From sequence record NC_047822.1: a DNA stretch of 64,000 bases; one strand, 5' to 3'. Source of the stretch: Escherichia phage phiLLS. The first letter of the stretch is position 1. Every line of letters begins with the position of its first letter. The position numbers were made by a program, and so were the translations under genes. Positions 3,942 through 23,281 of this stretch are shown here, one piece after another. The notes below the pieces were generated by a model that did not search any database, was not told where the DNA came from, and was given only the letters and a program-made list of their open reading frames with translations.

Positions 3942-4460
3942 ATGAATGTTGATGAGCTAACACAGCACCTCTTATCTAGAGGATTTGATACAGATAAATA
4001 TCATTGCTGGTTAAGTCCGGAAGGATGGCTAACAGTCCCGTTGTATGACTTCTCTGGGATGTTGAGGGGCTATCAAACTTATAATCCTTCTGCTCCAAAA
4101 GGTCATGGTAAGTGCCCCTTTGAAGCTAAATACTTTACTTATTCTACTACCCAGTGTGTATGGGGACTAGAAACTCTCAATGGAGATGAAAAAGTAGTAT
4201 TGATTGCTGAATCTGTATTTAAGGCAGTTGCGTTACATAATGCTGGTTATCCAGCCCTAGCAATGTTGGGTTCTTCTCCAGGAAAAGCGTTATTAAAGCA
4301 ACTGAAATTACTACCTTTTAAATTGGTAGCTGTCGGAGATAATGATCCTGCGGGTGAAAAATTTGCTAGAAAATTAAACGGCTTTGTTTCTCCCGTAGAT
4401 GTGGATGAGATGTCTACCGAAAACTTGAAAAATTTTCTTGCTATGAAGCTAAATTTCTAA
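3942..4460 (+). CDS. hypothetical protein, possible Toprim-like fold
   Basis: Start moved to the ATG after the promoter and RBS; VLIAES and VGDNDPAGEK motifs resemble Toprim Glu and DxD. Confidence 0.45.
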   Translation: MNVDELTQHLLSRGFDTDKYHCWLSPEGWLTVPLYDFSGMLRGYQTYNPSAPKGHGKCPFEAKYFTYSTTQCVWGLETLNGDEKVVLIAESVFKAVALHNAGYPALAMLGSSPGKALLKQLKLLPFKLVAVGDNDPAGEKFARKLNGFVSPVDVDEMSTENLKNFLAMKLNF

Positions 4461-4480
4461 TATAATATATCTTATAAATT
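4438..4480 (+). promoter_or_regulatory. T5-type early promoter driving a tRNA pair
   Basis: TTGCTA 4438-4443, TATAAT 4461-4466, spacer 17; tRNA begins at 4482. Confidence 0.55.
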
Positions 4481-4481
4481 C

Positions 4482-4570
4482 GGAAGAATAGCATAACGGT
4501 ATTGCAGCAGATTGCTAATCTGTCGGTTTGAAATATAGCCTTGTGGGTTCGATTCCCGCTTCTTCCGCCA
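4482..4570 (+). tRNA. tRNA-Ser (anticodon GCT), long variable arm
   Basis: Acceptor GGAAGAA/TTCTTCC, T-arm GTGGG-TTCGATT-CCCGC, anticodon loop TTGCTAA, 89 nt, CCA encoded. Confidence 0.6.
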
Positions 4571-4577
4571 AATTCTG

Positions 4578-4654
4578 GTTCTCAAGCTCATATGGTATGA
4601 GCACCCGGCTCATAACCGGAAGGTACGTAGGTTCGAATCCTCGGGGAGCCACCA
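4578..4654 (+). tRNA. tRNA with anticodon CAT (Met, fMet or Ile-lysidine)
   Basis: Acceptor GGTTCTC/GGGAGCC, T-loop TTCGAAT, anticodon loop CTCATAA. Confidence 0.55.
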
Positions 4655-4673
4655 AATTAAATAGAGGTCACAA

Positions 4674-4862
4674 ATGGATCTATATATAGTTTATGTTGTG
4701 TTTATCCAAGATAGAGAATACCCGGATGAATATAAAAAAGGGTATAGGTTGGCCAGAGCTACCTCTGAAGCCCAAGCTATGGATAAAGTGGCAGATTATA
4801 TGATTACGGTAGAAAACATACACTATATCGACTACCTTGAAGCCTCAAAAGTAATTGACTAA
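4674..4862 (+). CDS. hypothetical protein (62 aa)
   Basis: ORF with RBS-like AGAGG upstream. Confidence 0.4.
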   Translation: MDLYIVYVVFIQDREYPDEYKKGYRLARATSEAQAMDKVADYMITVENIHYIDYLEASKVID

Positions 4863-15239: not shown

Positions 15240-15513
15240 CACAGTGCAGATTCCAGCAACTAAGGATATTTTAACATTCCTACGTAGTGAGAATACCCAG
15301 TTTTGGCATGACTATATTCAGGAAAATAAAAATAATCCAGACATAGTTGCTTTTGCCAAAAAACGTATTGGGGAATATAAAGATCCAGAGATTAAAGATG
15401 GCATGATTACTATGCAATTGTGGGTAGCCATGAATACGTTTGGACCTACTATGAGTCTAGGAGTTACTCCACTGTTTACTAATATTCTAATTAATGAAAA
15501 GGATCTAAAATGA
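15217..15513 (+). CDS. hypothetical protein (98 aa)
   Basis: ORF overlapping neighbours. Confidence 0.4.
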   Translation: MKKLNINSTVQIPATKDILTFLRSENTQFWHDYIQENKNNPDIVAFAKKRIGEYKDPEIKDGMITMQLWVAMNTFGPTMSLGVTPLFTNILINEKDLK

Positions 15514-15794
15514 TTATCTCTCCCTTTGCTCTTTGGTTCGTCATTGGATCTATAGTAGCTATTTACAGCTTGGTTGATGATCTGTATATTTCTAAGAATA
15601 AAGATGTAATATTATACGTTATACATAAAACTCGACCGTTAGATATACCTCCTCTTGATGATAAAACATTACTGAGATGTGCTAGATCTATGATATTTAT
15701 TGTGGATATTCTTCTAGGCCCAACATCTGTGTTTTTCTTTTATAGAAAGACTCGTAATATGAAAAAATTTAAAGCTGAAATGCAGAATACCTAA
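15510..15794 (+). CDS. membrane protein (94 aa)
   Basis: Two hydrophobic helices; ATGA overlap with upstream gene. Confidence 0.45.
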   Translation: MIISPFALWFVIGSIVAIYSLVDDLYISKNKDVILYVIHKTRPLDIPPLDDKTLLRCARSMIFIVDILLGPTSVFFFYRKTRNMKKFKAEMQNT

Positions 15795-15904
15795 AGAACT
15801 CGCGTAGGACCGAGTTGCGTCACCTGCAACTGTTACGGATAAGGGAGTCGTGCCCCTTAGTGCGGTAAGTGGTGAGGTGGCTGCTAGCCCTAACTGGAGA
15901 TAAT

Positions 15905-16249
15905 ATGACTATATTACTAATTCTTGTTACAACTTGGTTTTTAATCGGTGCTGGATACGCGATAGCTATTATTAGACATTTGGATGAACATTCTGCTGAA
16001 TGGTTTGTTAAGTATCTACGTATTGATGGTCAAGAACAGAAGTTTAAAGACGAAAAGCAGAAAAAAGCAGTAAATAATATGACAGCCAAAGAATGCTTGT
16101 TCTACATGCGTATTGTAGGGTTCTTTGGACTATTAGTTGCTGGCCCAATTGGTTCTACCATTGCTCCGTATAAGGAAACAGTTGCTGACATCAAATTGTG
16201 GAGAAATGCAGGGGTACTGCACAAAGCTAGAAAAACTAATATTACATAA
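15905..16249 (+). CDS. membrane protein (about 114 aa)
   Basis: Start moved to MTILLILV after RBS TGGAGA; two TM segments. Confidence 0.45.
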   Translation: MTILLILVTTWFLIGAGYAIAIIRHLDEHSAEWFVKYLRIDGQEQKFKDEKQKKAVNNMTAKECLFYMRIVGFFGLLVAGPIGSTIAPYKETVADIKLWRNAGVLHKARKTNIT

Positions 16250-16343
16250 GATTGACACTAAGTCAGCTTACTAGCAAAAGCAAATAATGACAAAGCCCAG
16301 CCTGCACTTTTGCGACTGGGCTATTTTTATAATAAAATTTTAG

Positions 16344-16390: not shown

Positions 16391-16403
16391 AAGAGGATTA
16401 AAT

Positions 16404-17102
16404 ATGAGGATTATTTCTAAGTTCGCCGATGTGTATGATTTGCAGAACAGTTTGTTTGACCCAGATCGTGTGTGGGAACGTAAAACTGAGGAGTTACTGG
16501 TTAAAGTAACCGATGATGCAGAAAAGAACATTGTGCATACTCGCCAGGTATTTCGTGATGGTTCGCTATCTTTCCATGGTGATTTCGAATATTTTGTAAA
16601 CCCACTATTTGTTGCAGGTGAAGTTTACTGGTTACACGAGCTGTACTGCTGGCATCCAGCATTTAGCTTCAAAACGTTCAACCTCGACACTATGTTCGAT
16701 AAAATGGAAGAGATGGGATTGCATGCTCGCTCTTACTTAATGGATAAAAGTCGTGGGGATGTTCGTGAAACAATGCGTGATCTGCTAGTTGAAGCAAAAC
16801 CTAAAGCAGAACGTATCTTATCCGAACTGCGTGTACCGATTGCATATGTGAAAGGTATTAAAAAGAATGATAACGATGATGTTCGTAACTTCGTAATTCA
16901 GACTAACATTCGTTTCCATCAGTCAGGTATTCCGTGGCAGGAAATTGAAAGTAACTTATACCGTTTACACCAAGTTCTCGAACAGTATATCTTTGGTGTA
17001 CTAGGAACTGGTGAGCCTGATATGATTAAAGTATCAGATAAAGACAGGTTAGCAGCGCATGGATTTGATACAAAAACTTCTTTCAGGAATATGGCAAGGT
17101 AA
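16404..17102 (+). CDS. hypothetical protein (232 aa)
   Basis: RBS AAGAGGATTAAAT after promoter. Confidence 0.55.
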   Translation: MRIISKFADVYDLQNSLFDPDRVWERKTEELLVKVTDDAEKNIVHTRQVFRDGSLSFHGDFEYFVNPLFVAGEVYWLHELYCWHPAFSFKTFNLDTMFDKMEEMGLHARSYLMDKSRGDVRETMRDLLVEAKPKAERILSELRVPIAYVKGIKKNDNDDVRNFVIQTNIRFHQSGIPWQEIESNLYRLHQVLEQYIFGVLGTGEPDMIKVSDKDRLAAHGFDTKTSFRNMAR

Positions 17103-17508
17103 GTGGTATATCCTGGGAGCAGGTCTAGCGATAGGCATCGGGTTCGGTGCTTATCACTTAGTAAATAAAGTGGAGACTTTGGCGGGAGATCTTGCGGTAG
17201 CTACTAAAAAGATTTCTTCTCTAGAGACTTCCCTTAACAAGGTGAAAGCTGAAAGCGAACTTCGTGAGACTAGAATGAATCAGTATTTCACAATGAATAA
17301 TATTTCGCAAGCAGATCTAGACAAAAAGATTAAGCAGCTAGATAAAGCTCTTAGTCGTCAAGATGTTATCGCTGCAAAGCCTGGATTGGTAACATTAATT
17401 GCTAAAAAGCAGAATAAAGAATTCGAGGAAAGATTAGCGTGTTTAACTGGAAACTTGGAGTACTGCTCGCAGCCACAATCACAATCGCAGGCTGTGCAGA
17501 AGAAATAA
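17059..17508 (+). CDS. membrane protein with coiled-coil (i-spanin-like candidate)
   Basis: N-terminal TM WYILGAGLAIGIGFGAYHLV then coiled-coil; 3' end overlaps the lipoprotein ORF. Confidence 0.4.
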   Translation: MDLIQKLLSGIWQGKWYILGAGLAIGIGFGAYHLVNKVETLAGDLAVATKKISSLETSLNKVKAESELRETRMNQYFTMNNISQADLDKKIKQLDKALSRQDVIAAKPGLVTLIAKKQNKEFEERLACLTGNLEYCSQPQSQSQAVQKK

Positions 17509-17792
17509 AACCAGAGCCATCTCATGAGTTAAAGCAAGCTCATGTAGACTGGCCTAAAGGACTTCAACCTTGTAGCTTTGACTTTAAGTTTGAAAAGAAA
17601 TTAGCTACAAATGGAGAAGATGGCGTAGTAGTTGTTGTACCGTATAAAGATTGGAATGCAAAAGCAAAATGTGAGGAAGCAGTTTACTCTTACATTTCAC
17701 GACTGACTGGTATGGTTTGCTTCTATCGCCAAGATTTACAAGAAAAACGTTGCTTAGTTTACTATCCACCAATTAACAATAGGAAAGATTAA
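17439..17792 (+). CDS. lipoprotein (o-spanin-like candidate)
   Basis: Signal peptide with lipobox ITIAGC; start embedded in upstream ORF in another frame. Confidence 0.4.
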   Translation: MFNWKLGVLLAATITIAGCAEEIKPEPSHELKQAHVDWPKGLQPCSFDFKFEKKLATNGEDGVVVVVPYKDWNAKAKCEEAVYSYISRLTGMVCFYRQDLQEKRCLVYYPPINNRKD

Positions 17793-18544
17793 TGTCAGTA
17801 TTAGTCGGTTTACATGGTGAAGCTGGTTCGGGAAAAGATACCGTTGCAAAATTAATTATCGATTGGTGTAATGACACGTATCCAACGTGTTTATCCCGTC
17901 GTTATAGTTTTGCTAAGCCCGTTTATGAACTTGCATCCGTAATCCTCGGTGTAACTCCAGAGTTTTTAGGAGAGCGCAGGGGAAAAGAGATTGACCAATG
18001 GTTTACGGTCACACAATCTCAACTGGAGCGAGCCAGAGATGTGTGGTTTAAGTACGGTATCGATAAGTTTGAAGACTTCTCGTACGTTTGGCCTATTTTT
18101 GAGGAAAAATATCTTAATCCTCAACAACTTATCTCAGAGAATAAAGAAGACGGACTTTATAGTTTATTTATTTCTCCGAGAAAAATGTTACAGCTCGTAG
18201 GGACAGAGCTAGGAAGGCAGCTGGTGCATGAACGCATTTGGCTCATAATTCTGGAGCAATCCATCGCTAAAGACGACCCAGATGTCGCCGTAATAACAGA
18301 TGTTAGATTCCCCAATGAAGGAGAGTTACTCAGAGAAACAAACCATTTAGATATGGATTCTTTGATAGTAAATGTAGTACCCGCTGAGCAGAAGTTCACT
18401 ATTAAATCAGATCATCCATCTGAAAGTGGTATTCCTGCAAAATATATTACTCACGAATTAGTTAATAAATTCGATGGTATCAATAACCTTAAACTAGAAG
18501 TTTATAACTTCTGTGACTTAGAGCTAGAACCACTAGTTGGATAA
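17792..18544 (+). CDS. deoxynucleoside monophosphate kinase
   Basis: P-loop GLHGEAGSGKDT; 250 aa as in the T5 dNMP kinase; ATG overlaps upstream stop. Confidence 0.65.
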   Translation: MSVLVGLHGEAGSGKDTVAKLIIDWCNDTYPTCLSRRYSFAKPVYELASVILGVTPEFLGERRGKEIDQWFTVTQSQLERARDVWFKYGIDKFEDFSYVWPIFEEKYLNPQQLISENKEDGLYSLFISPRKMLQLVGTELGRQLVHERIWLIILEQSIAKDDPDVAVITDVRFPNEGELLRETNHLDMDSLIVNVVPAEQKFTIKSDHPSESGIPAKYITHELVNKFDGINNLKLEVYNFCDLELEPLVG

Positions 18545-18556
18545 TCAAGGATCGCT

Positions 18557-19153
18557 ATGGCTAATAAAAAAGAAAAGACTAATCTGTTTCACTCCATTCG
18601 CCAATCTAACGAGTATACCTTCTTCTTTGATGAAGAATTAGGCCCGCCGGATGAATACCGTGATTTATCAATGGTACTTATGCAGGCAAATGAGGACGAC
18701 GAAATTAATCTGATGATTAATGGTCCGGGTGGTTATGTTGATACTGCTGCACAGTTATCTAACTTAATTGCTAATTGCCGTGGAACAGTTATAGGACACC
18801 TGATTGGTCCTAGTGCTTCTGCTTACTGCACAATTTTCCTATCCTGTCATGGATGGGTAGTACATCCACATGCTACGCTAATGGGACACACGTTCTCTGG
18901 CGGATTCTGTGAGAAGGGTCAAGAAATTAAGAAAGCCTATGAATCTTACAACAAGTTCGTAGAAGATATGATGCTAGATGTCTACTATCCGTTCTTCTCA
19001 ATAGACGAAATCGACGAGATGGTAAAAGACAACAAAAATATCTATCTAGATAGCAAAGAAATCCATAAGCGTATTGAAATCTTGGCAAAATATCGATCTG
19101 AGCAATATAATAAAGCCCAGTTACCTCAATTTGAGGAGCACAGTGGAGAGTAA
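18557..19153 (+). CDS. ClpP-like serine peptidase (S14 family)
   Basis: LMINGPGGYV...GPSASAYCTIFLSCHG parallels ClpP INSPGG...GQAASMGAFLL motifs. Confidence 0.5.
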   Translation: MANKKEKTNLFHSIRQSNEYTFFFDEELGPPDEYRDLSMVLMQANEDDEINLMINGPGGYVDTAAQLSNLIANCRGTVIGHLIGPSASAYCTIFLSCHGWVVHPHATLMGHTFSGGFCEKGQEIKKAYESYNKFVEDMMLDVYYPFFSIDEIDEMVKDNKNIYLDSKEIHKRIEILAKYRSEQYNKAQLPQFEEHSGE

Positions 19154-19162
19154 GTAGTTTTA

Positions 19163-19196
19163 AGCCAGGGTTTAACGACCCTGGCTTTTCTTTTAT
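19163..19196 (+). terminator. Rho-independent terminator
   Basis: GCCAGGGT...ACCCTGGC hairpin followed by TTTTCTTTT. Confidence 0.6.
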
Positions 19197-19309
19197 CTAA
19201 AATTCTTCTTGACAACGACAAAATTTTATGCTCCAGAAGTGATCTTTAAAAACACATTGTAATTTTCCTCCAAAATTAGTATAATGGTACTGGTTAGAGG
19301 AGGTTACAA

Positions 19310-19966
19310 TTGGAAAAGTTCTTACAATTATTAACGGTACTGCTCCAAGAAGCGAAAGATCCAGCATCGCTTCTTAAACGTCTGCTAACTATCTTAGTTG
19401 CTGTCATTATTTTCTTATTTGTTAGTAATACTAGCGAGGTGATGTCATTCTTAAAGACTTTCTCCACGTCTGCGGTCCTACAGGATGTTCAAACTCAAAG
19501 GATAGATAACTTTCCTAATGTAGCTAGAGAAAAGAGCATGGTACTCTTTTCTCAAACGGGTGCGGATGCTGTTTTTGTCGTCAAGTATAAACCCGATGCC
19601 ATTAATGATTATTCTAACATTATTGCATGGGAAAGCAATGCGCAATTAGATAGGGCTGACTTGGCCGATAAAGCGGTAAATAAAACGTCTGAGCTATATA
19701 GACGTCACTTGGAAGGCTTTAACTACGCATCGGATTTAAGTGTAAAAGTAAATAAATACATGGGGTTAAATATACCTGCGTTTAAGAACGTTACTTTTAA
19801 TTACATATACACTTGTCCATATTTCAATCTAAACAATATCTATGCTGGATATATTGGTATTGCTTGGAAAGATAATCCTGTAGATGCAGCCGATTCTGAG
19901 AAATTTAACGAGTATTTAACAAAGCTCTGTTCCCCACAACAGAGATCTTTAGGTAGATCAATATGA
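19310..19966 (+). CDS. holin-like membrane protein
   Basis: 218 aa with single TM (ILVAVIIFLFV); immediately upstream of endolysin with ATGA overlap. Confidence 0.5.
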   Translation: MEKFLQLLTVLLQEAKDPASLLKRLLTILVAVIIFLFVSNTSEVMSFLKTFSTSAVLQDVQTQRIDNFPNVAREKSMVLFSQTGADAVFVVKYKPDAINDYSNIIAWESNAQLDRADLADKAVNKTSELYRRHLEGFNYASDLSVKVNKYMGLNIPAFKNVTFNYIYTCPYFNLNNIYAGYIGIAWKDNPVDAADSEKFNEYLTKLCSPQQRSLGRSI

Positions 19967-20376
19967 GTTTTAAATTTGGTAAAAATAGCGAAAAACAATT
20001 AGCTACCGTTAAGCCAGAGCTACAAAAAGTAGCTCGTAGAGCTTTAGAATTATCTCCATATGATTTCACGATCGTACAGGGTATTCGTACAGTAGCACAA
20101 AGTGCCCAGAATATTGCTAATGGTACTTCATTTTTAAAAGATCCTAGTAAAAGCAAGCATATTACTGGTGATGCTCTTGATTTTGCTCCATACATTAATG
20201 GCAAAATTGATTGGAATGACTTAGAAGCATTTTGGGCAGTTAAAAAGGCTTTTGAACAAGCGGGTAAAGAACTAGGCATTAAACTTCGTTTTGGTGCTGA
20301 TTGGAATGCTTCGGGAGACTATCACGATGAAATAAAACGTGGTACCTATGATGGCGGTCATGTCGAACTAGTTTAA
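19963..20376 (+). CDS. endolysin, L-alanyl-D-glutamate peptidase (peptidase M15)
   Basis: 137 aa; Zn-binding SKHITGDALDF and DGGHVEL motifs; length matches T5 endolysin. Confidence 0.75.
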   Translation: MSFKFGKNSEKQLATVKPELQKVARRALELSPYDFTIVQGIRTVAQSAQNIANGTSFLKDPSKSKHITGDALDFAPYINGKIDWNDLEAFWAVKKAFEQAGKELGIKLRFGADWNASGDYHDEIKRGTYDGGHVELV

Positions 20377-20385
20377 TTAATAACT

Positions 20386-20412
20386 GAGGCGGGAATATTC
20401 CCGCCTTTTTAG
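20386..20412 (+). terminator. Rho-independent terminator
   Basis: GGCGGGAATATTCCCGCC hairpin followed by TTTTT. Confidence 0.65.
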
Positions 20413-20453: not shown

Positions 20454-20870
20454 ATGTTTGCAGAACTATTCACTATGATGCTGCTAGGTATCTGGAAAAT
20501 AAGTCTAGTAGTATTCGTTTTAATGATAGTCTTTACTATCATTGCATTAACTACCCGAAATAGCTTATTAATAAAGGTTATTCACGGACTAGAGTATATA
20601 ATTATGGGTTCATTCGGCGTTTGTAAATGCAATTGCCATAGAGATACGAAATATTGTTGGTTATGGATGGAACTAGAGAATCCTATATCCATAGCTTTGG
20701 CTGTTTCATTCGGCATGATTCTTATGGCCCTTACTCTAGCATTAATACCTTTGATGTTAGCTGGGGGAGTTACAGCGTATTTCACCCTTTTCTCCCCGAT
20801 ACTTATGTACTCAATTTACCCAATAACTATGTATCTAGTTAGGAAAAGATTTATACATGCAGTAGATTAA
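20454..20870 (+). CDS. polytopic membrane protein (138 aa)
   Basis: Four hydrophobic segments; RBS TAGGAGAAAGCC. Confidence 0.5.
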   Translation: MFAELFTMMLLGIWKISLVVFVLMIVFTIIALTTRNSLLIKVIHGLEYIIMGSFGVCKCNCHRDTKYCWLWMELENPISIALAVSFGMILMALTLALIPLMLAGGVTAYFTLFSPILMYSIYPITMYLVRKRFIHAVD

Positions 20871-22417: not shown

Positions 22418-23281
22418 ATGAAAAAAGAATTTAATGTGCATAAAACACTAGTAGTACCTGATGATGTTAACTTATTCTTTGTTGGTGATATTCATGGATG
22501 CAACGATTTACTAGAAGATGCACTACAATTAGCTGGCTATAACGGCAAGAAAGACTGCGTTGTATGCGTGGGGGATTTAATTGATCGAGGCACGCAGAAC
22601 CTACAAGTTTTAGCCAAATTCCTGTATAATCCACGCTTTATCAGTGTCCGTGGTAATCATGACCAATTTATGATTGTGGGAGATTGGGCTAACTGGATGT
22701 ATAACGGTGGTATGTGGGCCATGAATGAACTAGATGCAGATACCATTAAAAATATTGCTGAAGACATGGCTGAAAAAATGCCAGTATTTCTGACTGTATT
22801 GCATCGTGGTAAAAAGTATGGTGTTGTTCATGGTGGTGTACCTTTTACGTACAAAGAATGCGGTAACGAAGTAGAAACCCCAGTATGGGATAGTCTTATT
22901 GCACAAGTAGAAGCAGCTAAGGAAGACCCCCATGACCATCCTGGATACCATGTTGAGCCATACTTATGGGATCGAGATGTAATCCAAGAAATAGGTTTTC
23001 ACTTAGCTAAAAATGGTGAAGAACACTCATATTTCCAGCGTTATGCAGGGTTTAAAGAGAAATACATGGTAGAAGTACCTCCGGTTAATGGAGTAGACTT
23101 TGTATTTCATGGGCATACCGGAGTACCTTACCCGATTTTATACCAGAACCGTGTTTACCTAGATACTGGCGGTGTTTTCAACGGGCAGTTGACGGTTGCG
23201 CAAGTTAACGATGAAACTGGCAAAATCACCACATTTACCACAGACAAAAATGATAGCTGCGGTGTACAGAGGATCCTTTAA
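22418..23281 (+). CDS. Ser/Thr protein phosphatase (calcineurin-like metallophosphatase)
   Basis: GDIHGC, GDLIDRG, RGNHD motifs; start codon uncertain (22406 or 22418). Confidence 0.65.
   Translation: MKKEFNVHKTLVVPDDVNLFFVGDIHGCNDLLEDALQLAGYNGKKDCVVCVGDLIDRGTQNLQVLAKFLYNPRFISVRGNHDQFMIVGDWANWMYNGGMWAMNELDADTIKNIAEDMAEKMPVFLTVLHRGKKYGVVHGGVPFTYKECGNEVETPVWDSLIAQVEAAKEDPHDHPGYHVEPYLWDRDVIQEIGFHLAKNGEEHSYFQRYAGFKEKYMVEVPPVNGVDFVFHGHTGVPYPILYQNRVYLDTGGVFNGQLTVAQVNDETGKITTFTTDKNDSCGVQRIL

Follow-up and report, generated by a model that had tools for sequence, protein, structure and literature searches.

Gene pair and genomic neighbourhood

The window analysed here, 64,000 nucleotides of Escherichia phage phiLLS (NC_047822.1), is the genome sequence of a Tequintavirus (T5-like phage) and is 98% identical at the DNA level to several deposited phages. 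At 17059–17792 it carries two genes, which we refer to as the putative i-spanin and o-spanin genes. These and the surrounding features are as follows.

16310–16338: promoter-like site, matching the position of an annotated T5 promoter
16404–17102, + strand: T5.047 homologue of unknown function (phrog_4243), whose last 44 nt are shared with the start of the i-spanin gene
17059–17508, + strand: putative i-spanin gene, 149 aa, ATG start (open reading frame, phrog_739, AKFV33 identity, T4 PseT.3 homology)
17107–17163, + strand: predicted i-spanin transmembrane helix, residues 17–35, YILGAGLAIGIGFGAYHLV (hydropathy maximum, spanin census, Sugarland note)
17425–17429, + strand: o-spanin Shine–Dalgarno sequence, GAGGA, within the i-spanin gene and 9 nt 5' of the GTG
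17439–17792, + strand: putative o-spanin gene, 117-aa precursor, 99 aa mature, GTG start (open reading frame, phrog_812, T4 PseT.2 homology)
17439–17495, + strand: predicted lipoprotein signal peptide, lipobox IAGC at residues 16–19 (regular-expression match)
17439–17508, + strand: dual-coding overlap, 70 nt, encoding the C-terminal i-spanin residues 127–149 together with residues 20–23 of the o-spanin and its signal peptide
17718–17753, + strand: o-spanin C-terminal cysteine pair C94...C105, motif C-F-Y-R-x-x-L-x-E-x-x-C (alignment A1)
17792–18544, + strand: dNMP kinase gene (Pfam PF21448, E 1.5e-11; PHROG match)
18557–19153, + strand: Clp-protease-like gene (Pfam PF00574, E 4.6e-8; PHROG match)
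19162–19187, + strand: intrinsic-terminator-like hairpin, 11-bp stem and T run, at the position of an annotated T5 terminator
19257–19285: promoter-like site of the holin and endolysin genes
19310–19966, + strand: holin gene, T4 T-type (PF11031, E 8e-114; phrog_860)
19963–20376, + strand: endolysin gene, M15 peptidase (PF13539, E 1e-4; phrog_465)

The order of the genes (unknown gene, i-spanin, o-spanin, dNMP kinase, Clp-like gene, holin, endolysin) is conserved, and the o-spanin start, the lipobox and the synteny are kept in three genera of the Demerecviridae, Tequintavirus, Sugarlandvirus and Myunavirus. The T5.047 homologue probably opens the spanin-containing transcription unit, which the hairpin at 19162–19187 would end. 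The two genes are outside the holin–endolysin transcription unit and appear to be co-transcribed with the dNMP kinase gene, a point that counts against their being spanins. The earlier note had placed the pair upstream of the holin–endolysin pair; upstream it is, but not adjacent, as the dNMP kinase gene, the Clp-like gene, the strong terminator-like hairpin and the promoter-like site all lie in between.

The two proteins and their overlapping genes

The 149-aa protein has a short cytoplasmic N-terminus, one TM helix and a helical, coiled-coil periplasmic domain. Residues 17–35 form its sole hydrophobic stretch, with a maximal 19-residue Kyte–Doolittle mean of 1.55. Measured against the customary TM cut-off of 1.6 this is borderline and counts against the spanin assignment; the value falls slightly short because the stretch is Gly-rich. 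SpaninDB treats the matching stretch of the AKFV33 protein as a TMD and has the periplasmic domain begin at residue 36 (PMC6139136), and the depositor's note on the Sugarland orthologue reads 'N-terminal TMD'. The census gives, for the 149-aa orthologues of AKFV33 and FFH1, one Pepcoil coiled coil at residues 33–76 and approximately 55% helix by JPred (PMC6139136). In the phiLLS protein, a crude heptad count over residues 35–80 finds hydrophobic residues at 77% of the a/d positions in one register. The predicted topology is therefore a single N-terminal TMD with the bulk of the protein in the periplasm, and the periplasmic domain is predicted to be largely alpha-helical with coiled-coil character. 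The hydropathy profile, the AKFV33 census entry and the heptad count thus bear out the N-terminal TM helix and coiled coil proposed in the earlier note. Both cysteines of the protein, C128 and C136, are close to the C-terminus.

The o-spanin gene begins within the i-spanin gene, with the last base of i-spanin codon 127 as its first nucleotide, and is read in the +2 frame. C128 is encoded by the first codon of the overlap and C136 also falls within it. The genes are adjacent, the i-spanin gene comes first, and the arrangement is of the 'overlapped' class. According to the spanin census, "the T5 spanins overlap by 70 bp" (Kongari et al. 2018, PMC6139136). Its Table S4 lists an overlap of 70 and an i-spanin gene of 450 nt for AKFV33 and FFH1, and the phiLLS gene lengths of 450 and 354 nt with a 70-nt overlap are the same as the values tabulated there for the two phages. 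The overlap also has the same length in T5, from which it differs at 5 of 70 nt; over the whole o-spanin gene the difference is ~12%.

The N-terminus of the 117-aa protein reads MFNWKLGVLLAATITIAGC, followed by AEE, and the only lipobox match in it is IAGC, residues 16–19. Cys19 is the predicted lipid acceptor and, since residue +2 (Ala20) is alanine and not aspartate, outer-membrane sorting is expected. The protein thus carries a predicted SPII lipobox together with a predicted outer-membrane sorting signal, and the lipoprotein that the earlier note saw starting within the first gene in another frame is confirmed. Besides C19, the protein contains four cysteines (C45, C78, C94 and C105). The mature form has 7.1% Pro and no Pro run. 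Six phages of the Demerecviridae and Straboviridae show no variation at Met1, Gly18 and Cys19. Columns C94, Y96, R97, L100, E102 and C105 of alignment A1 are likewise invariant, and C94 and C105 are aligned there with C87 and C98 of T4 PseT.2.

The overlap might be an artefact of ORF calling in an AT-rich genome, in which case the 117-aa frame would not be a real gene or would start elsewhere. The start codon is GTG and not ATG, and several deposited genomes, for example vB_Sen-E22 and the NBSal005 RefSeq record, leave the gene unannotated. However, overlapped o-spanins are routinely missed by gene callers (PMC6139136). The GAGGAAAGATTAGC-(A/G)TG context of the start is common to T5, JLBYU40, vB_Sen-E22 and NBSal005; the codon is GTG in phiLLS, vB_Sen-E22 and NBSal005 and ATG in T5 and JLBYU40, and the G/A difference is synonymous in the i-spanin frame. 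The internal start is thus conserved in relatives, a check that the earlier note had proposed, as are the Gly-Cys of the lipobox and a GAGGA or similar ribosome-binding site. In comparison with T5, the o-spanin gene outside the overlap has a pN/pS of 0.16 and the i-spanin gene one of 0.09, and 8 and 11 stops interrupt the two alternative frames of the o-spanin region. Both frames are under purifying selection. A tblastn search with the lipoprotein found 550 phage records, 544 of which cover at least 80% of the query, with identities down to ~32%. Moreover, a non-coding region here would leave a 284-nt gap in a tightly packed genome. We therefore see next to no chance that the o-spanin frame is spurious.

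Family membership and homology to T4 PseT.3 and PseT.2

Against the PHROG profiles, the 149-aa protein matches phrog_739 (E 4e-38) and the 117-aa protein phrog_812 (E 7e-30), both named 'Rz-like spanin'. The i-spanin and its curated AKFV33 counterpart in SpaninDB are 97% identical, which settles the identity of the feature, and the o-spanin is 90% identical to T5.044. In the T5 RefSeq record both T5.045 and T5.044 are labelled 'Rz-like spanin', and the same pair is annotated as 'putative i-spanin' and 'putative o-spanin' in the JLBYU40 record; i- and o-spanin labels have been given by independent annotators, for Sugarland and other phages. Each sequence criterion that we tested points to a spanin, and by sequence the pair is a member of the published T5 spanin family. 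The gene pair at 17059–17792 is thus very probably the two-component spanin of a T5-like phage, whose inner-membrane protein and outer-membrane lipoprotein would disrupt the outer membrane of the host as lysis ends. The earlier note had read it in the same way, and the PHROG matches, the AKFV33 entry, the T5 annotation and the census all support that reading.

The pair is already known and, being catalogued and annotated in many relatives, it is ordinary. In many other deposited genomes one or both genes are called 'hypothetical protein', or the o-spanin is omitted. As the standard spanin of T5-like phages, the pair has little significance beyond correct annotation. T5-like phages find wide use in the biocontrol of Salmonella and E. 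coli, and the practical value lies in labelling 17059–17508 as i-spanin and 17439–17792 as o-spanin.

Several searches count against the spanin assignment or add nothing to it. Neither protein matches a spanin model in Pfam-A or NCBIfam, which counts against it. The weak Pfam and NCBIfam matches that were obtained (CNOT1, MctB, FtsL-like and others) are far below the cut-offs and reflect only TMD-plus-coiled-coil composition. A PDB sequence search found no solved relative of either protein, and its best hits, at E 0.1–0.9, are coiled-coil noise. The literature on T5.044/T5.045 and on Tequintavirus spanins yielded annotation-level statements and no direct experiment on a T5-type spanin, which also counts against the assignment; spanin function is attributed to the T5-type pair by homology.

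That homology leads to T4. In pairwise BLASTP the i-spanin matches T4 PseT.3 (E 2e-6) and the o-spanin T4 PseT.2 (E 2e-7), and the T4 proteins themselves match phrog_739 and phrog_812 with E 1e-37 and 3.5e-43, respectively. The T4 and T5 sequences were those of their GenBank records. The T5 RefSeq notes also record the similarity to PseT.3/PseT.2. Judged by sequence, the phiLLS proteins are distant homologues of the T4 pair, and identity to these validated spanins is only 27–29%, which counts against the spanin assignment. T4 pseT.3/pseT.2 complemented the lysis defect of lambda Rz-am Rz1-am, and both C87 and C98 of PseT.2 are essential for lysis (PMC6139136).

Lipoproteins of T5-like phages can serve another purpose. 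T5-like phages encode Llp, a lipoprotein that in T5 blocks FhuA (cited in PMC4342426). The phiLLS lipoprotein might accordingly act in superinfection exclusion or receptor masking, with the membrane protein unrelated and the spanin-like layout a coincidence. The location of the pair in an apparent early-type unit with dNMP kinase and not with holin and endolysin would agree with such a role, as would the size of the mature protein, which at 99 aa is probably folded and is unusual next to lambda Rz1. On the other hand, its sole PHROG match at E<=0.01 is spanin phrog_812, the family that also holds T4 PseT.2; that scan met no similarity to the exclusion and receptor-masking family (T5 Llp, Cor). 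Throughout the Demerecviridae and T4-like phages, a TMD/coiled-coil partner always accompanies the lipoprotein, with the order unchanged, and the cysteine pair that is essential in PseT.2 is invariant. Furthermore, Shivani lacks llp, yet it retains the pair (PMC4342426). An Llp-like role is extremely unlikely on these grounds.

The gene linkage raises a second question, namely whether the two proteins, as a complex that spans the envelope, have a task that is not outer-membrane disruption, such as an envelope function early in infection. Such a role would fit the linkage of the pair to early genes in T5 and T4. In both the T5-like phages and T4 the genes are located away from holin and endolysin and adjoin nucleotide or RNA-repair genes, and we found no T5-specific lysis phenotype in the searchable literature. 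By established spanin biology, however, early expression is no argument against a role in lysis: as long as the peptidoglycan is intact it keeps spanins inactive, and their early expression is therefore tolerated. Since the T4 homologues also fully replace lambda Rz/Rz1 in lysis (PMC6139136), we regard a function outside lysis as very unlikely and retain the spanin assignment.

Proposed mechanism and comparison with known spanins

The present analysis establishes the anatomy of both open reading frames, the families to which they belong and their homology to the validated T4 pair, whereas the steps proposed for the T5-type pair are drawn from the lambda and T4 spanin literature. The 149-aa protein would insert into the inner membrane via its N-terminal helix and extend its helical coiled-coil domain into the periplasm. 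The o-spanin would be translated from its own internal start (GTG; ATG in T5), served by the GAGGA ribosome-binding site within the i-spanin gene. The 117-aa precursor would receive its lipid at Cys19 and be processed by signal peptidase II, and the lipoprotein would then be directed to the outer membrane and sit in its inner leaflet. The two proteins are expected to bind each other by their C-terminal regions. The complexes so formed would pass through the mesh of the peptidoglycan and bridge the periplasm, and disulfides in which o-spanin C94/C105 take part probably stabilise them. As long as the wall is intact, the complexes would be inert. After release of the M15 endolysin by the T-type holin and degradation of the wall, they would be free to move sideways and collapse, and the collapsed complexes would fuse the inner and outer membranes, removing the last barrier to phage release.

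It is possible, if unlikely, that the T5-type complex has a disulfide arrangement or a control of timing unlike both lambda and T4. This is left open by the extra C45/C78 and the C-terminal extension of the o-spanin, by C128/C136 in an i-spanin tail that is absent from the T4 i-spanin, and by the apparent co-transcription with the early dNMP kinase gene and not with holin and endolysin. On the same unlikely reading, the GTG/ATG polymorphism of the o-spanin start might tune the ratio of the two subunits.

Like lambda Rz/Rz1, the pair combines a type II inner-membrane coiled-coil protein with an outer-membrane lipoprotein, both with periplasmic cysteines as predicted, and its second gene begins inside the first in another reading frame. 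The lambda Rz1 gene is wholly embedded in Rz, whereas here only 70 of the 354 nt of the o-spanin gene lie in the i-spanin gene. Lambda spanins are encoded in the same late operon as holin and endolysin; the phiLLS genes, unlike these, are in a separate unit. Pfam models for lambda Rz and Rz1 exist, and neither phiLLS protein gives a relevant Pfam-A match to this family at E<=0.1. Of the Rz/Rz1 architecture invoked in the earlier note, the spanin pair as such therefore stands, but lambda-like embedding and homology to Rz/Rz1 do not. Mature lambda Rz1 is a small protein, rich in proline and including a penta-proline stretch (PMC6139136), whereas the mature phiLLS o-spanin has 99 aa and 7% Pro. 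The earlier note had rightly remarked that the lipoprotein is larger and less Pro-rich than typical o-spanins; this is nevertheless normal for the T4/T5 type and is explained by the homology to PseT.3/PseT.2.

P2 LysB/LysC shares the 'overlapped' architecture class in the census (PMC6139136). According to the census tables, it belongs to different sequence families.

The T4 pair is closer. The KPGLV motif of PseT.3 is conserved in the i-spanin; the o-spanin shares the H-x-x-W-P and C-x-Y-R-x-x-L-x-E-x-x-C motifs with PseT.2; in both phages the pair lacks a proline-rich region and is unlinked from holin and endolysin. The T4 genes are 'separated' (4-nt overlap), whereas the phiLLS genes overlap by 70 nt. 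The phiLLS i-spanin is longer by 32 aa than its T4 counterpart, which lacks cysteine, and has an additional C-terminal tail with two Cys; the phiLLS o-spanin differs from PseT.2 by two additional Cys (C45 and C78) and a 12-residue C-terminal extension. The 'separated' architecture and cysteine-free i-spanin that mark the T4 family are thus not found in phiLLS, with its 70-nt overlap and two i-spanin Cys; in keeping with this, the census treats T5 and T4 as separate families.

The closest match is the T5 family of the census, which comprises 10 phages, T5, AKFV33, FFH1, DT57C, EPS7, Stitch, SPC35, My1, Shivani and phiR201; in Shivani and phiR201 the pair is split by a GIY-YIG endonuclease gene (PMC6139136). 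T5 itself differs from phiLLS in the HNH homing endonuclease gene (hegF) inserted just upstream and in its i-spanin, which has 147 aa and another cytoplasmic N-terminus. The phiLLS pair agrees with the T5 family in its 149-aa i-spanin, 117-aa o-spanin, overlap length and frame relation, and in its neighbours, dNMP kinase, Clp-like protease, T-type holin and M15 endolysin.

Gene order and transcription context

The 4 kb around the spanin pair (window positions 16400–20400) match 452 phage records, with query coverage of 80% or more in 419 of these. The top matches, at 98% identity (Escherichia phage Es2, Citrobacter phage Cit2, Salmonella phage Kenya-K15 and Escherichia phage JLBYU40), are T5-like phages, and the records of JLBYU40, vB_Sen-E22 and NBSal005 place these phages in Tequintavirus (Demerecviridae). 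The genes around the pair run in this order.

16404–17102, unknown gene, 232 aa (T5.047 homolog)
17059–17508, + strand, i-spanin ORF, 149 aa, ATG start
17439–17792, + strand, o-spanin ORF, 117 aa, GTG start
downstream of the o-spanin ORF, dNMP kinase (PF21448)
after the kinase, Clp-protease-like protein (PF00574)
19310–19966, holin, T4 T-type (PF11031, E 8e-114)
after the holin, endolysin, M15 peptidase

The pair thus lies upstream of the holin and endolysin, as the earlier note had it, with the dNMP kinase and Clp-like genes in between. Promoter-like sites precede the 232-aa gene (16310–16338, 9/12) and the holin (19257–19285, 10/12), and a strong terminator-like hairpin with an 11-bp stem (19162–19187) is found 3' of the Clp-like gene. 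Since T5 has promoters and terminators annotated at the corresponding places, the spanins appear from sequence to belong to a separate transcription unit with the dNMP kinase gene, apart from the holin and endolysin. An intact wall keeps spanins inert, and their early expression would therefore be tolerable.

The 138-aa ORF immediately 3' of the endolysin (20454–20870) is a homolog of T5.039 (four transmembrane domains according to T5 RefSeq); because it adjoins the holin and endolysin, it could encode an accessory lysis protein, for instance an antiholin-like one. Two small membrane-protein ORFs upstream of the spanin unit (15510–15794 and 15869–16249) are homologs of T5.049 and T5.048, with two transmembrane domains each in the T5 RefSeq notes. 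Inside the dNMP kinase gene (dnk), GAGA|GCGCAG (17970–17979) fits the T5 nick-site consensus (Pu-pGCGC) and lies ~182 nt into dnk, the position of the 'major DNA single-chain interruption' annotated in T5 RefSeq. The window phage probably carries the same genomic nick as T5, immediately 3' of the spanin pair.

The two proteins and their family

The 149-aa protein shows the sequence features of the N-terminal transmembrane helix and the coiled coil proposed for it. Its one hydrophobic stretch (residues 17–35) has a Kyte-Doolittle 19-residue mean of 1.55, slightly under the customary cut-off of 1.6 because the stretch is Gly-rich. A heptad pattern covers residues 35–80; for the 149-aa orthologs of AKFV33 and FFH1, the curated spanin census tabulates a single coiled coil at residues 33–76 (Pepcoil) and a periplasmic domain of ~55% helix (JPred) (PMC6139136).

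The lipoprotein begins inside the 149-aa ORF in another frame, and both ORFs are exactly as the earlier note described them. The genes overlap by 70 nt, with the o-spanin in the +2 frame, and a GAGGA ribosome-binding site lies inside the i-spanin gene, 9 nt 5' of the GTG. The o-spanin N-terminus reads MFNWKLGVLLAATITIAGC followed by AEE; it contains IAGC, the protein's sole match to a lipobox, in which Cys19 would accept the lipid, and the Ala at +2 implies a predicted sorting to the outer membrane. At 99 aa and 7.1% Pro, the mature protein is indeed larger and less Pro-rich than typical o-spanins, which is accounted for by the T4/T5 type of the pair.

Both proteins match families named "Rz-like spanin" in the PHROG lysis category: phrog_739 (149-aa protein, E 4e-38) and phrog_812 (117-aa protein, E 7e-30). 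The JLBYU40 record labels precisely the same ORFs, of 450 and 354 nt, "putative i-spanin" and "putative o-spanin", and this labelling occurs in many further phage records. In Sugarland (Center for Phage Technology annotation) the orthologs are an I-spanin with the depositor's note "N-terminal TMD" and an O-spanin with "LipoP SPII signal cleavage at residues 18-19". In T5 RefSeq, T5.045 and T5.044 each carry the name "Rz-like spanin" and share a 70-nt overlap at 22802–22871; the notes record similarity to PseT.2 of T4 and of RB69/Aeh1, although one of the T4 accessions appears to belong to PseT.3.

Some other database labels for this region appear doubtful. In the JLBYU40 region (L001, from OK272480.1), the T5.047 homolog (1505–2203) is labelled 'putative DNA polymerase III subunit epsilon' and a small upstream gene (1–340) 'putative tail tape-measure protein'; Pfam gives no match for the window's T5.047 homolog.

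The census lists both components for a T5 family comprising T5, EPS7, Stitch, SPC35, AKFV33, FFH1, DT57C, My1, Shivani and phiR201, and places it in the overlapped class ("the T5 spanins overlap by 70 bp"); AKFV33 and FFH1 are tabulated with a 450-nt i-spanin gene and a 70-nt overlap (PMC6139136). The window pair fits this family, and its i-spanin is identical to that of AKFV33 at 145 of 149 positions. The pair, overlap length included, is therefore already known from the literature.

Selection and conservation of the overlapping genes

With T5 as reference (~88–90% DNA identity across this region), pN/pS is 0.09 in the i-spanin gene and 0.16 in the o-spanin gene outside the overlap. The two alternative frames of the o-spanin region hold 8 and 11 stop codons, and the 70-nt overlap contains five differences, fewer than the flanking sequence. 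A tblastn search with the lipoprotein matched 550 phage records, 108 of them below 60% identity (Klebsiella, Proteus, Pectobacterium and Providencia phages and T4-like phages). Selection and conservation together exclude a chance ORF.

The internal start was compared in T5, Klebsiella phage Sugarland (Sugarlandvirus), Pectobacterium phage My1 (Myunavirus), a T4-like Shigella phage and T4. In all five the lipoprotein begins at the aligned Met1, followed by a basic residue at position 2, 3 or 5 and a hydrophobic core, and the lipobox Gly-Cys is invariant. The overlap varies (70 nt in the window and T5, 88 in Sugarland, 34 in My1, 4 in the Shigella phage and T4); the +2 frame relation holds in all six. 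Conservation of the i-spanin is lowest in the residues that the overlap encodes, as also found in the census (PMC6139136). Among near-identical phages the o-spanin start is polymorphic: T5 and JLBYU40 have ATG, and the window, vB_Sen-E22 and NBSal005 have GTG. The G/A substitution at 17439 leaves the i-spanin residue unchanged (GCG/GCA, Ala) and could shift the ratio of o-spanin to i-spanin.

The lipoprotein is unlikely to be an Llp-like exclusion lipoprotein, because the spanin PHROG is its only family match, it is always paired with a TMD/coiled-coil partner, and Shivani lacks llp yet retains the pair.

Comparison with lambda, T4 and T5

Neither protein shows similarity to lambda Rz/Rz1, judged by the lack of a Pfam match at E ≤ 0.1. 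T4 PseT.3 and PseT.2 are distant homologs of the window i-spanin (29% identity, E 2e-6) and o-spanin (29%, E 2e-7), and also match phrog_739 and phrog_812 (E 1e-37 and 3.5e-43). Motifs kept in both phages include KPGLV of the i-spanin and, in the lipoprotein, H-x-x-W-P and C-x-Y-R-x-x-L-x-E-x-x-C. PseT.2 cysteines C87 and C98, both essential (PMC6139136), align with C94 and C105 of the window o-spanin and are invariant. The Rz/Rz1 architecture seen in the earlier note is thus supported as a two-component spanin, but of the overlapped rather than the embedded class and of the T4/T5 rather than the lambda sequence type.

Although the literature searched yielded no direct experimental work on T5-type spanins, a non-lysis function of the pair in the envelope is very improbable: T4 pseT.3/pseT.2 complement the lysis defect of lambda Rz-am Rz1-am (PMC6139136), which argues against it. 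As spanins, and by analogy with lambda and T4 (literature summarised in PMC6139136), the i-spanin would be anchored in the inner membrane and the lipidated o-spanin most likely in the outer membrane. Their periplasmic C-terminal regions would bind to form complexes, probably disulfide-stabilised, threaded through the peptidoglycan, and these would fuse both membranes once the holin and endolysin had destroyed the wall.

In the window, the first 44 nt of the i-spanin gene (17059–17102) are shared with the gene upstream. In the stretch of T5 compared with it (4246–4743 of region L004), the HNH homing endonuclease gene hegF (T5.046), absent from the window, lies between the T5.047 homolog and the i-spanin. 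The cytoplasmic N-terminus of the i-spanin is MDLIQKLLSGIWQGKW in the window and MRKWFVDLVWNNKM in T5. In Shivani and phiR201 a GIY-YIG gene separates the two spanin genes (PMC6139136). Both ends of the locus seem to have been reshaped by gain or loss of homing endonucleases.

T-type holins (PF11031) and PseT.3/PseT.2-type spanins are two lysis modules common to T5-like phages and T4. The endolysin, an M15 peptidase in the window, is unlike that of T4. Neither group has its spanins linked to the holin; T4 pseT.3/pseT.2 sit between alc and pseT, like the window pair away from the holin and endolysin.
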